DNA of 64,000 nucleotides from a virus. Taxonomy: Duplodnaviria; Caudoviricetes. Location of the stretch: IMG/VR virus record IMGVR_UViG_3300032030_000024, positions 59,591 to 123,590 of that record; one strand, written 5' to 3'. Shown here in pieces: positions 43,848 to 47,155 of this stretch. The stretch's first letter is position 1. Every line of letters starts with the position of its first letter. The notes beneath the pieces were generated by a model. That model did not search any database, was not told where the DNA came from, and saw only the letters and a program-made list of their open reading frames with translations. The position numbers were made by a program, and so were the translations under genes.

Positions 43848-44693
43848 TCAGCCGAACAAGTCCATCTGTATCGCCGACACGTTGCGCTTCTTTGGCGGGG
43901 CAGGGGTGTAATCCTTTTCATATACCCATTTATATCCCCTTGCGTGCTTTATCTTTCCGTTACAGCAACTTATAATCATAGGACGCGGAGCTTTAATACT
44001 TTCAGCTGCATATTTAGATGACGGATATGTTGCTATATAGTTTCCATCCATATCCAGCTGCACAACGTTATAAGCCTTTTCTGTAAACTTGGCACTACGG
44101 GACGCAGCTGAGTCAGCTATCTTCTTCTTTATCCTTTCCTTTGCTACTGCATAAAGAGCATCGTCTTTATACCTCCAAAAGAAACCATAAGCCTTCCTTC
44201 TATTACCAATACAACAGTCACATATATGCCCTGCATCTGCATTTATCGCTTCTGCTGCTATGTGCATAGAGGCGTATTCCGCTATAAACTCCCCGTTGAG
44301 CGTAAATTGCAATACGGCCATATTCTGCTTCTCTTTTATCCTTTGGATTCTTGTCCCGTAATTGCAGTTGTATTTATGTGTACACCATTCAAGATTCTCT
44401 ACACAATTATTCATAGGGTTCTCGTCTAAGTGATTTATTTCCTCTCCATCTTGTGGTGGACGTATAAATGCTGTTGCAACCAAACGTGCAGGAATATATC
44501 TCCTCGCTTTACCATTCTTGCTTAATTCCACTACAATGCGGTCATTGCTTTGCCTATGGTCTATTCTTTGTTTCACCATCTTTCCACCAAACATCTGACC
44601 GTGAACCATTCTTGGTATTGACCAAATATTACCTTTGTTACTTATTTTATATATTCCCTCGTAACCTTCAATATCTTTCCAAATTTCTTCCAT
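43848..44693 (-). mobile_element. NUMOD4-HNH-NUMOD1 homing endonuclease
   Basis: EIWKDIEGYEGIYKISNKG; INHLDENPMNNCVENLEWCTHKYN; two VxQ..L.G.....Y.S..A repeats; AT-rich. Confidence 0.9.
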
Positions 44694-44694
44694 A

Positions 44695-45303
44695 TCAAAA
44701 TAAACTTAGTTGTAGTGTTTGCTGGATTGGTTTCTTGTTTGTAGGTGTAATAAAGATATTTTTGAAAATGTAATACAAGGGCGAAATTGTGATGCTGTTG
44801 CCTGCAAGACGGTACTGCGCACTTTTGGAAATACCACAGTTCTCTATCGTATCGATATCCTTTTCAGAAACTCCTTGAAGTCTGAAAACCTCTCTTGTTG
44901 TAAGCTTACGAATCCTCATGCTTAAAGGACAGATGTCCGCAAGAAAGCGCAGCAGCTCCCCGCGTGACCACGATCCCCTGTTTTCCACGGTGAAGAGAAC
45001 ACCCGTAACAATACCGTAGGCTGCACCGCTCTTGATGCCCCACGACCGTATGATGTCCGCGAGCTGCCGCCGTGCCTCCGGGGAGAACTCAGCTTCCGTG
45101 GTGTCGGTGAAAGCCTCCTGTACACCGTCTGGCATTGCCGTGCCACGGGGATACACGAACCTCGGACAGTCCAGCCGGAGGGCTATGGGGAACGCCACTT
45201 TGAACAGCTTCAGTGCCTCGTTGTCAACTTTGTCCTGTCCGTACTTCCTTCTCAGCGCACGGTAGACGATGCGCACCTGTCTGTGAAAATCATTCTGTCT
45301 CAT
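44695..45303 (-). CDS. C5-cytosine DNA methyltransferase, C-terminal subunit (motifs IX-X) with extra N-terminal domain
   Basis: RIRKLTTREVFRLQG (IX), QYRLAGNSI (X), QLSLF end. Confidence 0.85.
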   Translation of the reverse strand: MRQNDFHRQVRIVYRALRRKYGQDKVDNEALKLFKVAFPIALRLDCPRFVYPRGTAMPDGVQEAFTDTTEAEFSPEARRQLADIIRSWGIKSGAAYGIVTGVLFTVENRGSWSRGELLRFLADICPLSMRIRKLTTREVFRLQGVSEKDIDTIENCGISKSAQYRLAGNSITISPLYYIFKNIFITPTNKKPIQQTLQLSLF

Positions 45304-45308
45304 GCTAT

Positions 45309-45494
45309 TTATTCCGTTTCAAAAGTCAAAAATACCTTTATATGTCCTGCGGTCGTTACGGTCGGGCTTTCGTTCCTTGGATTGGTTATCTGCCACTCTG
45401 CAACACCGCGCTTATCAAATGTGTCGCCCTGAAAGCATCTGATGTCACCGTTGGGCATCCGCTTGAACCGTATGTTGTCGCTCCTTCTGCTCAT
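45309..45494 (-). CDS. TRD-like mini-protein 7 (61 aa)
   Basis: MSRRSDNIRF...NESPTVTTAGHIKVFLTFETE. Confidence 0.7.
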   Translation of the reverse strand: MSRRSDNIRFKRMPNGDIRCFQGDTFDKRGVAEWQITNPRNESPTVTTAGHIKVFLTFETE

Positions 45495-45685
45495 TCCGTA
45501 AAATATATCTCCGCTATCATACAATCTTTTGTTGCGAATGTTGTAATAGTCTGCGCTATCCTTCCAAGCAGTACGCCGTACTTGCCCTTGGAGAACGTAG
45601 CCCCGTGGTCGCCGTGCCTGTGCCTGCGCCGCTTCTCTTCCTGCGTCCTGTCACGCCCTACTGCCCTTGCGTCATGCGGTTTCAT
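45491..45685 (-). CDS. TRD-like mini-protein 6 (64 aa)
   Basis: MKPHDAR...IAQTITTFATKDCMIAEIYFTE. Confidence 0.7.
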   Translation of the reverse strand: MKPHDARAVGRDRTQEEKRRRHRHGDHGATFSKGKYGVLLGRIAQTITTFATKDCMIAEIYFTE

Positions 45686-45827
45686 AGGTCATCATCACTT
45701 TAGGTTCGACACCGCTGTGTGCTCCGCATCCGAGGCACGGGCAAACGCCACTTACATTCAGCACCGTTCCGTTCTGACGGCTGGCATACACATAGCCTTC
45801 CACGAGTATCTTGTCATTCTGTCTCAT
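45672..45827 (-). CDS. TRD-like mini-protein 5 (51 aa, below ORF-track cutoff)
   Basis: MRQNDKILVEGYVYASRQNGTVLNVSGVCPCLGCGAHSGVEPKVMMTYETA. Confidence 0.7.
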   Translation of the reverse strand: MRQNDKILVEGYVYASRQNGTVLNVSGVCPCLGCGAHSGVEPKVMMTYETA

Positions 45828-45975
45828 ACACCACCATCGCCCCCGTTGCGCCCCAGTCGTTCTGATGCAGGTAGTTCGCCACGGACATTTTATACATATT
45901 TGCCTTGATGGTTCTGCACGTCCCGTCCGCTTCGGGGTTACACCCGCGTTTCCAGCTATTCCTACTCTGTCTCAT
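45814..45975 (-). CDS. TRD-like mini-protein 4 (53 aa)
   Basis: MRQSRNSWKRGCNPEADGTCRTIKANMYKMSVANYLHQNDWGATGAMVVYETE. Confidence 0.7.
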   Translation of the reverse strand: MRQSRNSWKRGCNPEADGTCRTIKANMYKMSVANYLHQNDWGATGAMVVYETE

Positions 45976-46135
45976 ATACAATCGCACAACACATTTTTGG
46001 AAAATGGGCAACCGTCAGCATATTCGCCACTCCGATAAGTCCTCCGTAGCTTGCCGTGATGGTCGGTGCAACGCCATCGGCTGTTGTGGGCAGTCCACGC
46101 TTCCGATATGGGGGTGGGAGTTTATTCGGTCTCAT
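45962..46135 (-). CDS. TRD-like mini-protein 3 (57 aa, below ORF-track cutoff)
   Basis: MRPNKLPPPYRKRGLPTTADGVAPTITASYGGLIGVANMLTVAHFPKMCCAIVYETE. Confidence 0.7.
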   Translation of the reverse strand: MRPNKLPPPYRKRGLPTTADGVAPTITASYGGLIGVANMLTVAHFPKMCCAIVYETE

Positions 46136-46271
46136 ATATAGTCATTACGCTTGTGGCGGCACTCGGAGTATCGCCTTGCAGGTCGTAGAATCCCCATCCG
46201 CTGCGCTCGTAGCTGCACTTGATAGTCCTCGCACAGCCGTTTGGCGCGTTAAAAGCCTCACTCCGTCTCAT
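46122..46271 (-). CDS. TRD-like mini-protein 2 (49 aa)
   Basis: MRRSEAFNAPNGCARTIKCSYERSGWGFYDLQGDTPSAATSVMTIYETE. Confidence 0.7.
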   Translation of the reverse strand: MRRSEAFNAPNGCARTIKCSYERSGWGFYDLQGDTPSAATSVMTIYETE

Positions 46272-46416
46272 ATATGAGCAAGCATTTGGGGCAGTTTCCG
46301 TGCCCTGCGGTATGGCAGGGAGAGACACCGTTAACATACACAACCACGCCGTCCTGACTACTGCTGATACTGCCAGCATAGAGCACATTGTCGCTAATCC
46401 TCCCATTCATCATCAT
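46258..46416 (-). CDS. TRD-like mini-protein 1 (52 aa)
   Basis: MMMNGRISDNVLYAGSISSSQDGVVVYVNGVSPCHTAGHGNCPKCLLIYETE. Confidence 0.7.
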   Translation of the reverse strand: MMMNGRISDNVLYAGSISSSQDGVVVYVNGVSPCHTAGHGNCPKCLLIYETE

Positions 46417-47155
46417 CCCATAAAGAGCCTTGCATGGCATCGGCAGAATCCTTGTTCCCGTCCTCCTCCATGCTCTTTTCAGCAAACCGACTAAGCATGG
46501 TATCACTTAAAAAATAACTCTCATCAACATCGTCTTCCAGCACATCGGCAAGGCATTTCTCCAACTTGAACGGAAGCGGGAACTCGTAGCCTTGGTCAAC
46601 ATCACGTCTGATGCTCACAACAAAGACCCGATCACGGTGCTGCGGCACTCCATACTGGGATGAATCGAGCACCTGCCAGTAGTTGTCGTAGCCGTAGCTT
46701 TCCAATATACGTAACCACTCCTGGAAGTCCTTGTAGAATTTCTGCTGGGTCAAAGCCTTTACATTCTCTAAAAGCAAGTACGATGGCCGCTTCTCTGCTA
46801 TGGCCTTCTCACATTCCCATAACAATGAGCTGCGAGTCCCAGAGCCGCGTTTCAGACCAGCCTGTACGCCCGCCGCCGAAATATCAGTACAAGGAAAGGA
46901 ATATGTGAACACGTCAAAGTCGGGCACCTCGCTCCATGATATTTTGCTTATATCTCCAAACTGCTTGTCTTTCGCATTGGGAAAGAGGGCATCGTGAGCT
47001 GTGTTTGCAGCATCGTCTATCTCACTCCAGCCGACCAGTTCGTAATCGAAATCGGGAAAGTTTTCTCGCAGCCTGTTCATCGAGAGGCACTGACTGTCAT
47101 ACCCAGAGAATGCGGTAAAGACTTTAAGCGGATTGTCCTTGTTGTATTCCATCAT
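46394..47155 (-). CDS. C5-cytosine DNA methyltransferase, N-terminal catalytic subunit (motifs I-VIII)
   Basis: FTAFSGYDSQ (I, variant), WSEID, SFPCTD (IV, catalytic PC), LENVK (VI), YGVPQHRDRVF (VIII), L.DVLE.DVDE.Y.LS. Confidence 0.92.
   Translation of the reverse strand: MMEYNKDNPLKVFTAFSGYDSQCLSMNRLRENFPDFDYELVGWSEIDDAANTAHDALFPNAKDKQFGDISKISWSEVPDFDVFTYSFPCTDISAAGVQAGLKRGSGTRSSLLWECEKAIAEKRPSYLLLENVKALTQQKFYKDFQEWLRILESYGYDNYWQVLDSSQYGVPQHRDRVFVVSIRRDVDQGYEFPLPFKLEKCLADVLEDDVDESYFLSDTMLSRFAEKSMEEDGNKDSADAMQGSLWDDDEWED

Follow-up and report, generated by a model that had tools for sequence, protein, structure and literature searches.

The window, that is, the whole 64,000-nucleotide stretch of phage DNA analysed here, carries on its minus strand a locus that is predicted, from its conserved motifs, to be a C5-cytosine methyltransferase split into an N half, seven mini-genes for target-recognition domains (TRDs) and a C half. 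The motifs that characterize C5-methyltransferases are not united in one polypeptide in the window; the locus consists of a series of nine ORFs in shifted frames, which are as follows.

46394..47155, minus strand: N half, 253 aa, motifs I-VIII; PF00145 match with E=7e-44 at profile positions 7-219 of 324
46258..46410, minus strand: TRD cassette 1, 50 aa, ...GVSPCHTAGHG...IYETE
46122..46271, minus strand: TRD cassette 2, 49 aa, ...GCARTIKCSY...IYETE
45962..46135, minus strand: TRD cassette 3, 57 aa, ...GVAPTITASYGG...VYETE
45814..45975, minus strand: TRD cassette 4, 53 aa, ...GTCRTIKANMYK...VYETE
45672..45827, minus strand: TRD cassette 5, 51 aa, ...GVCPCLGCGAHSG...TYETA
45491..45685, minus strand: TRD cassette 6, 64 aa, basic head, ...QTITTFATKD...IYFTE
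45309..45494, minus strand: TRD cassette 7, 61 aa, ...ESPTVTTAGH...TFETE, followed by a 5-nt gap
44695..45303, minus strand: C half, 202 aa; PF00145 match at profile positions 273-323, 24.5 bits (cut-off 22)

The N half displays the signatures of motifs I-VIII, with FSGYD, FPC, ENV and QHRDR visible for the AdoMet-binding FxGxG, the catalytic PC, ENV and QxRxR, respectively, while the C half displays those of motifs IX-X, with IRKLTTRE ... AGNSI visible for RxLTxxE ... GNS[IV]. Alignment and a structure model of the C half (pLDDT 68, N-terminal domain helical) place a conserved helical domain of ~125 aa before motifs IX-X. This extra domain is kept, according to the alignment, in all multi-cassette loci examined, and it may act as an adaptor. 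Cassette 1 begins within the N half, whose end it overlaps by 17 nt. All seven small ORFs can be aligned with one another over a Met-Arg/Lys head, a G..P-T-I-T-like core and a hydrophobic strand that ends in Y-E-T-E. When aligned with single-chain relatives, cassettes 1, 2, 4 and 5 fall between motifs VIII and IX (for cassette 1, in the fused relative L074), cassette 4 being 42 % identical to a TRD inside the fused enzyme L039, and the counterparts of cassette 6 are TRDs fused to parts with motifs IX-X; on the strength of these matches the cassettes are identified as TRDs. The type represented by cassette 6 comprises 51 cluster representatives, some of which are fused to motifs IX-X. Its AF2 model (pLDDT 82) consists of a head strand at residues 5-13, a helix and a tail strand at residues 56-60, and for this very small module neither Foldseek against the PDB (no match at E <= 0.001) nor a wide VIA-align search (nothing at Z >= 2) returned a structural counterpart.

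The cassettes are joined by a short repeated sequence that is read in two frames. At five successive junctions the upstream frame reads Y-E-T-E/A-stop and the +1 frame M-R/K, with an overlap of exactly 14 nt each; the sixth junction is of a different kind.

46258..46271, minus strand: junction 1/2, ATGAGACGGAGTGA; cassette 2 starts within the Y-E-T-E-stop of cassette 1
46122..46135, minus strand: junction 2/3, ATGAGACCGAATAA
45962..45975, minus strand: junction 3/4, ATGAGACAGAGTAG
45814..45827, minus strand: junction 4/5, ATGAGACAGAATGA, the same as the first 14 nt of the C half
45672..45685, minus strand: junction 5/6, ATGAAACCGCATGA
45491..45494, minus strand: junction 6/7, ATGA overlap, tail YFTE

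Reading both frames confirmed what the original prediction had described at these places, namely five minus-strand junctions with exact 14-nt overlaps, the use of all three stop codon types (TGA, TAA, TAG, TGA and TGA across the five), an ATGA overlap at junction 6/7 and a 5-nt gap between cassette 7 and the C half, with the tails YFTE and FETE. The ATGA junction is retained together with the pair of cassettes 6 and 7 in the relatives L001, L007 and L009. In the 64-kb window the degenerate 15-mer TATGARACNGNRTRR, which covers the junction, has five matches against 0.05 expected, a number reached in 0 of 100 shuffles, and all five (46258-46272, 46122-46136, 45962-45976, 45814-45828 and 45672-45686, minus strand) are inter-cassette junctions. 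The bare heptamer ATGAGAC is not enriched over the whole window (12 matches against 8.4 expected); the non-random part is the clustering and the full 14/15-mer rather than this heptamer. The C half also begins with ATGAGACAGAATGA (45290-45303, minus strand), identical to the start of cassette 5. Ribosome hopping to this identical 14-mer was considered and rejected, as it lies hundreds of nucleotides away, and an alternative genetic code was ruled out by the use of all three stop codons.

The split architecture is not peculiar to the window. The N half has 5,529 homologues, and among the best 120, 117 are at most 307 aa long and therefore too short for a complete enzyme. On the contigs of these homologues the same layout recurs, the N half being separated from the C half by a series of small ORFs whose frame keeps changing. 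This arrangement is widespread in gut and rumen phage contigs, where it reaches up to 17 cassettes. Nine cassettes are present in L001/L002 (83 % identical to the window), and others have at least 13 (L004; 16-17 by eye), 11 (L007), 10 (L009) and 16 (L015); with L001/L002, L004, L007/L009 and L015, independent assemblies of the same architecture span 7 to 17 cassettes. An assembly artefact was ruled out, given that the architecture occurs in independent Logan, ENA and IMG/VR assemblies and that dN/dS supports coding. Related loci were found by an alignment-based scan; a single N-half sequence as query yielded none, and a word-index search with the extra domain of the C half as query yielded only four close relatives. 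Searching the locus against deposited phages by blastn matched solely the neighbouring HNH gene, tblastn returned relatives only below 60 % identity, annotated as ordinary methyltransferases, and literature searches turned up no account of TRDs encoded as mini-ORFs of their own. Orthologous cassette types reappear in other lineages and phages, where their order and number partly differ.

Of 85 related loci (IMG/VR and others), 45 encode single-chain enzymes whose TRDs, from one to about six, are in frame. M.MpeI and M.HhaI are matched over the full length by the fused relative P0107 (333 aa). In P0128, two cassettes are joined in frame with both the tail and the Met retained ('...IYENE-MTRCN...'), while in P0126, P0132 and P0140 the preceding TRD is fused without the Met. 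Fusion also occurs towards the other end, with a cassette of P0174 attached to the helical domain and motifs IX-X, and those of P0141 and P0144 attached directly to motif IX. Such in-frame fusions involve the same cassette types, and covalent linkage therefore also works.

Across the family, the junction was sought by a scan of offsets whose sole requirements were an ATG and two frames open for 35 codons or more. Overlaps of 14 nt were the commonest, with 45 distinct junctions (a count that includes orthologues from close relatives and one spurious match within the C half), followed by 4 nt with 27, and each other offset had at most 9; with one genome per lineage, 34 true 14-nt junctions remain in four lineages. 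The family consensus is T-ATG-A-R-A-C-N-G-A-N-T-R-A. Coupled gene pairs typically share 4, 1 or 8 nt genome-wide, overlaps beyond 8 nt being rare (PMC10666635), and the dominant 14-nt class is therefore specific to this family of split methyltransferases. This rarity of overlaps above 8 nt among coupled pairs (PMC10666635) was counted against the reinitiation reading set out below.

Codon choice at the junction suggests that the start is not incidental. When cassette ends were chosen solely by the presence of Glu at -3 relative to the stop, the Tyr immediately N-terminal to it was encoded by TAT in 38 cases and by TAC in one (the tail of L010), against 53 % TAT in the bodies of the same genes (p about 7e-10). 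Where His, Asp or Asn replaces the Tyr of the junction, the codon remains NAT and the ATG survives, and the ends that have no ATG include last cassettes with a separate downstream start, such as that of the window (TTT) and that of L002 (AAC, Asn). Judged by these codon preferences, the +1-frame ATG in the junction is under selection. At position -6 all 45 junctions have a purine, although the residue encoded there in the upstream frame varies, and residue 2 of the downstream cassette accordingly stays Lys or Arg. The cassettes themselves are also under purifying selection as proteins. The comparison of dN/dS between frames that the original prediction had proposed, made on the cassettes of the window and L001, bore out coding: the value is 0.16 in their own frames, close to those of the N half (0.15) and the C half (0.20), and 2.35 and 1.36 for the same DNA in the other two frames, which argues that each cassette is a protein in its own frame. 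A silent archive of cassettes was ruled out by the dN/dS of 0.16 together with the selected start codon.

Taken together, the 14-mer, which codes in two frames, is most plausibly a start/stop overlap that links each TRD mini-gene of a multispecific split methyltransferase to the next, probably serving termination-reinitiation, a reading to which we assign a probability of about 0.65. The upstream frame of the 14-mer encodes the end of the last TRD strand, consisting of hydrophobic residues, Tyr-Glu, two further residues and the stop, and within the Tyr-Glu codons TAT-GAR the +1 frame opens the following cassette with ATG-A and then a codon for Lys/Arg. In the proposed mechanism, a ribosome that terminates one cassette would restart 11 nt upstream at the ATG of the following one. 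A single mRNA with one strong Shine-Dalgarno (SD) sequence at the N half would in this manner yield the N half, separate TRD peptides of ~50 aa and the C half, with which the free TRD peptides may then assemble. Recombination would delete, insert and homogenise cassettes at the repeated junction, as a side effect that is possibly selected.

The signals for initiation are consistent with such an arrangement. The N half carries the only strong SD of the array (GGGGAG; SD duplex energy -7.7), and the ATGs of the cassettes show a mean anti-SD duplex energy of -1.99 compared with -1.97 at random positions, with an SD core motif at 9 % of cassette starts compared with 12 % in the background. Two features of coupled gene pairs are therefore present, namely a downstream gene lacking an independent ribosome-binding site and a conserved downstream start that overlaps the upstream stop, the ATG lying 11 nt 5' of the stop in the 45 junctions. 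Short overlaps drive termination-reinitiation and are found enriched among genes for subunits of heteromeric complexes, the final 15 nt of the upstream gene being enough for coupling (PMC10666635). The selected ATG, the Lys/Arg at residue 2, the lack of an SD and the dN/dS values combine to indicate genuine initiation at the overlapped ATG, and they point to ribosomes fed from the upstream ORF; the translational coupling suggested in the original prediction is in this way supported, albeit indirectly. A start/stop overlap under selection is well supported by the codon and frame comparisons.

The unusual length of the overlap may be explained by the protein that it encodes. The TRDs of fused relatives end in the same hydrophobic strand and Glu (NYIIEP, LLYEP, YVVEP) with no start codon there, and in P0107 this strand, the counterpart by alignment of the last TRD strand in M.MpeI, is followed immediately by motif IX; the Tyr-Glu dipeptide is thus an inherited structural motif. 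It was proposed earlier that the tail peptide, and not only the DNA, is selected, and these fused ends bear that out. Since TAT-GAR contains ATG-A and the domain needs about two further residues, the stop falls 11 nt after the ATG, and the overlap would be 14 nt rather than 4 or 1 nt because the start lies within the conserved Tyr-Glu, two residues from the end of the domain. In the minor classes, where the overlap is 11 or 8 nt, the tail has one or two residues fewer.

Among the other explanations, the one that survives best holds that the junction is primarily a recombination joint, a direct repeat that permits deletion, duplication, insertion and conversion of cassettes without damage to start or stop and that is maintained by the resulting evolvability. 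All three natural and independent indels found between close relatives, the type of breakpoint comparison that the original prediction had recommended, have their breakpoints in the junction. Two cassettes of L001 are missing from the window, and the tail of the window's cassette 7, GAAACGGAATAAA, equals that of cassette 9 in L001; the single extra cassette of L007 relative to L009 lies between identical copies of a 17-nt direct repeat, TATGAGACTGATTAAGG, that contains the 14-mer; and L005 has one cassette more than L004, with breakpoints at cassette heads. Junction 23-mers are also more similar within a genome (0.457) than between genomes (0.388; permutation p < 0.0002), although this could partly stem from genome-specific codon usage, and orthologous cassette types differ in order and number among phages. 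However, neither the ATG, as reflected in the TAT/TAC bias, nor Lys/Arg at the second codon nor the constant distance to the stop is needed for recombination, and the homology that the junction offers is weak, only ~9-10 of 14 junction positions being conserved. Moreover, breakpoints in the junction are expected in any case, because indels elsewhere destroy cassettes and are removed by selection. As the primary role of the junction, recombination is thus unlikely, yet it is compatible with the start/stop overlap as a second role, and the comparison of relatives indicates that cassette gain and loss at the junction is a real process.

It is much less probable still that the repeat is a mere by-product of descent, arising from tandem duplication of an overlap-bearing unit with a constrained tail peptide and an incidental ATG. 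The cassettes are all homologous TRDs, the tail of hydrophobic strand and Glu predates the split and is present in fused relatives, and TAT-GAR creates ATG-A automatically. Nevertheless, TAC, which accounts for 47 % of Tyr codons within these genes, is used in just 1 of 39 junction tails, substitution of Tyr by His or Asp leaves the AT of the codon in place, a pyrimidine never occurs at position -6, and the pattern is kept across four diverged lineages.

The least credible explanation treats the junctions as sites of programmed +1 ribosomal frameshifting that yield fused multi-TRD chains: a +1 shift at the stop would indeed enter the frame of the next cassette, fused multi-TRD enzymes are functional architectures among the relatives, and neighbouring cassettes are naturally fused in frame in some of them, but the 45 junctions have 17 different last sense codons instead of a conserved shift-prone P-site codon, there is no SD enrichment that would indicate an SD-like stimulator upstream, the fold of the downstream 50 nt does not exceed the control (mean z -0.31 against 0.06 for cassette interiors), frameshifting has no use for an ATG although TAT outnumbers TAC by 38 to 1, up to 17 serial shifts would leave a negligible full-length yield, and the same arrays hold ATGA (-1 phase) and gapped junctions. 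Of the three roles that the original prediction had offered, translational coupling and the microhomology joint are therefore supported, the former indirectly and the latter as a process visible in the three indels and in the higher similarity of junctions within genomes, while +1 frameshifting to fused chains is not supported, given the variable last codon, the missing stimulator and the lack of excess downstream structure. The junction most likely hands ribosomes from one mini-gene to the next, and it is also the site at which the array gains and loses mini-genes.

Multispecific methyltransferases are among the classic means by which phages evade restriction, and to our knowledge they have been described only as single polypeptides. 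The nearest examples for comparison are the multispecific C5-methyltransferases of temperate Bacillus phages (SPR, phi3T, rho11s and H2 type; Trautner et al. 1996, cited in PMC12707154). Like the SPR/phi3T type, the locus of the window would be a phage enzyme with one catalytic core and several tandem TRDs of ~40-60 aa between motifs VIII and IX (seven TRD-like cassettes in this case), and it presumably serves, likewise, to shield the DNA of the phage against many restriction systems; those relatives of the window with one to six in-frame TRDs are exactly of the SPR/phi3T type. In contrast to that type, the TRDs of the window are not covalently joined and are ORFs of their own in shifted frames, with a stop, a start and a change of frame at every boundary, and the core is split into an N half and a C half, the latter with the extra helical domain of ~125 aa.

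C5-methyltransferases are able to work as separate fragments both in nature and in the laboratory: M.AquI and M.EcoHK31I are naturally split, M.AquI within the variable region, and fragment complementation is known for M.BspRI, M.BsuRI, M.HhaI and M.SssI (PMC3404938). The window resembles M.AquI and M.EcoHK31I in that its catalytic motifs lie on separate polypeptides, which are predicted to require non-covalent assembly. Those two enzymes consist of two pieces with one specificity, whereas the window would have nine pieces (up to 19 in L015) and its recognition module would be a free, exchangeable peptide; a search of the literature found no precedent for a 50-aa TRD that assembles in trans. 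In genetic organization, the cassettes are similar to coupled overlapping gene pairs, which are co-directed, have a start within the end of the upstream gene and no separate SD, and typically encode subunits of heteromeric complexes (PMC10666635, PMC6728339). Unlike the usual coupled pairs, the 14-nt overlap is dominant in this family and is serially repeated up to 10 or more times per array.

These comparisons allow a broader, tentative picture, to which we give somewhat less than an even chance, of a phage methyltransferase 'kit' in which up to 17 separately translated TRDs of ~50 aa would plug in trans, through the conserved head (Met-Arg/Lys...) and tail (...Tyr-Glu-x-x), into a shared N half and a C half with its helical adaptor, the junction doubling as a recombination joint. 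The separateness of the cassettes is perhaps not essential, and their fusions in relatives neither prove nor exclude action in trans. In its working, such a kit would recall the Type I HsdS subunit, a separate and exchangeable specificity polypeptide for a common methylase core whose TRDs are shuffled at conserved flanks. The analogy is limited to the working, as the fold and chemistry of HsdS are unrelated (N6-adenine methylation, coiled-coil scaffold) and no homology is claimed. If the kit is real, there would be cytosine methylases with a specificity-subunit logic like that of Type I systems, and phages would swap specificities via the junction.

The split, mini-gene form represents a new version of the multispecific phage C5-methyltransferase. 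For annotation, the consequences are practical: gene callers now miss or mis-start the cassettes, and the N halves resemble truncated pseudogenes, and recognition of the junction remedies both. For studies of translation, the arrays provide natural replicates, arranged in series, in which to examine reinitiation at an overlap of 14 nt, unusual in its length. Should the peptides act in trans, this would be the first C5-methylase with exchangeable specificity subunits and would provide a natural toolbox of DNA-reading modules of ~50 aa. For the phages themselves, the junction accounts for the growth and shrinkage of their specificity repertoires.

Among the 45 distinct 14-nt junctions recovered by an offset scan over related loci, a set that includes orthologues from close relatives and one spurious match within a C half, 43 contain ATGA (for example, window 46268-46271). 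Because of this ATGA, TGA is also present in the third reading frame, and all three frames are therefore closed or restarted within 14 nt at every junction. The spurious match is the start of motif IX inside the C half (window 44910-44925, minus strand), which reads M-R-I-R-K-L-T (ATGAGGATTCGTAAG) and was scored as a 14-nt junction. This start is similar to the cassette heads, M-R/K-x-I/L-K/D, and might represent their ancestor.

The first junction lacks a YE-type motif. At the C-terminus of the N half is a tail that is acidic and variable, LWDDDEWED (window 46394-46420, minus strand); a triple ATG within it begins cassette 1, giving an overlap of 17 nt in the window and of 11-35 nt in relatives. 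The related phage contig L005 carries one cassette more than L004 (L005:6412-6682), joined through a 14-nt junction with a TTG start (TTGAAACTAAGTAG). The cassette that follows the extra one lacks the usual YE tail, ending in '...KKMVLEQLV', and may be decaying.

Two features occupy the C half and its 3' flank:
44920-45303, minus strand: helical N-terminal domain of the C half, about 125 aa, ahead of motif IX
43848-44693, minus strand: HNH/NUMOD4-type endonuclease gene, directly downstream of the C half

The endonuclease ends in '...TPAPPKKRNVSAIQMDLFG' (43848-44693, minus strand), and the intact C half of L001, a related multi-cassette contig, has the same C-terminal tail ('...ITPAPPKKRNVSAVQMDLFG'). 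The C half in the window ends differently from that of L001, in '...ITPTNKKPIQQTLQLSLF' (44695-44760, minus strand). In the window, the endonuclease appears to be an insertion within the 3'-terminal part of the methyltransferase gene; in L001, a similar HNH gene is located elsewhere, upstream of the N half.

In some relatives, the last TRD is followed by a different module that they share, '...SSGTGYSQY...TWYTP...'. In P0146 this module separates the TRD from motif IX, and it forms the end of P0094, a protein comprising an N half and a TRD.

The helical domain, with the pattern DFHRxVRIVYRxxRRxYG ... W ... DIxP, is kept in all multi-cassette loci (L001, L004, L007, L009, and L015) and is absent from fused relatives such as the single-chain methyltransferase P0107. 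In the related protein P0174, a single chain comprises a TRD, then the helical domain, and then motif IX. The helical domain of the C half may act as an adaptor that receives free TRDs.
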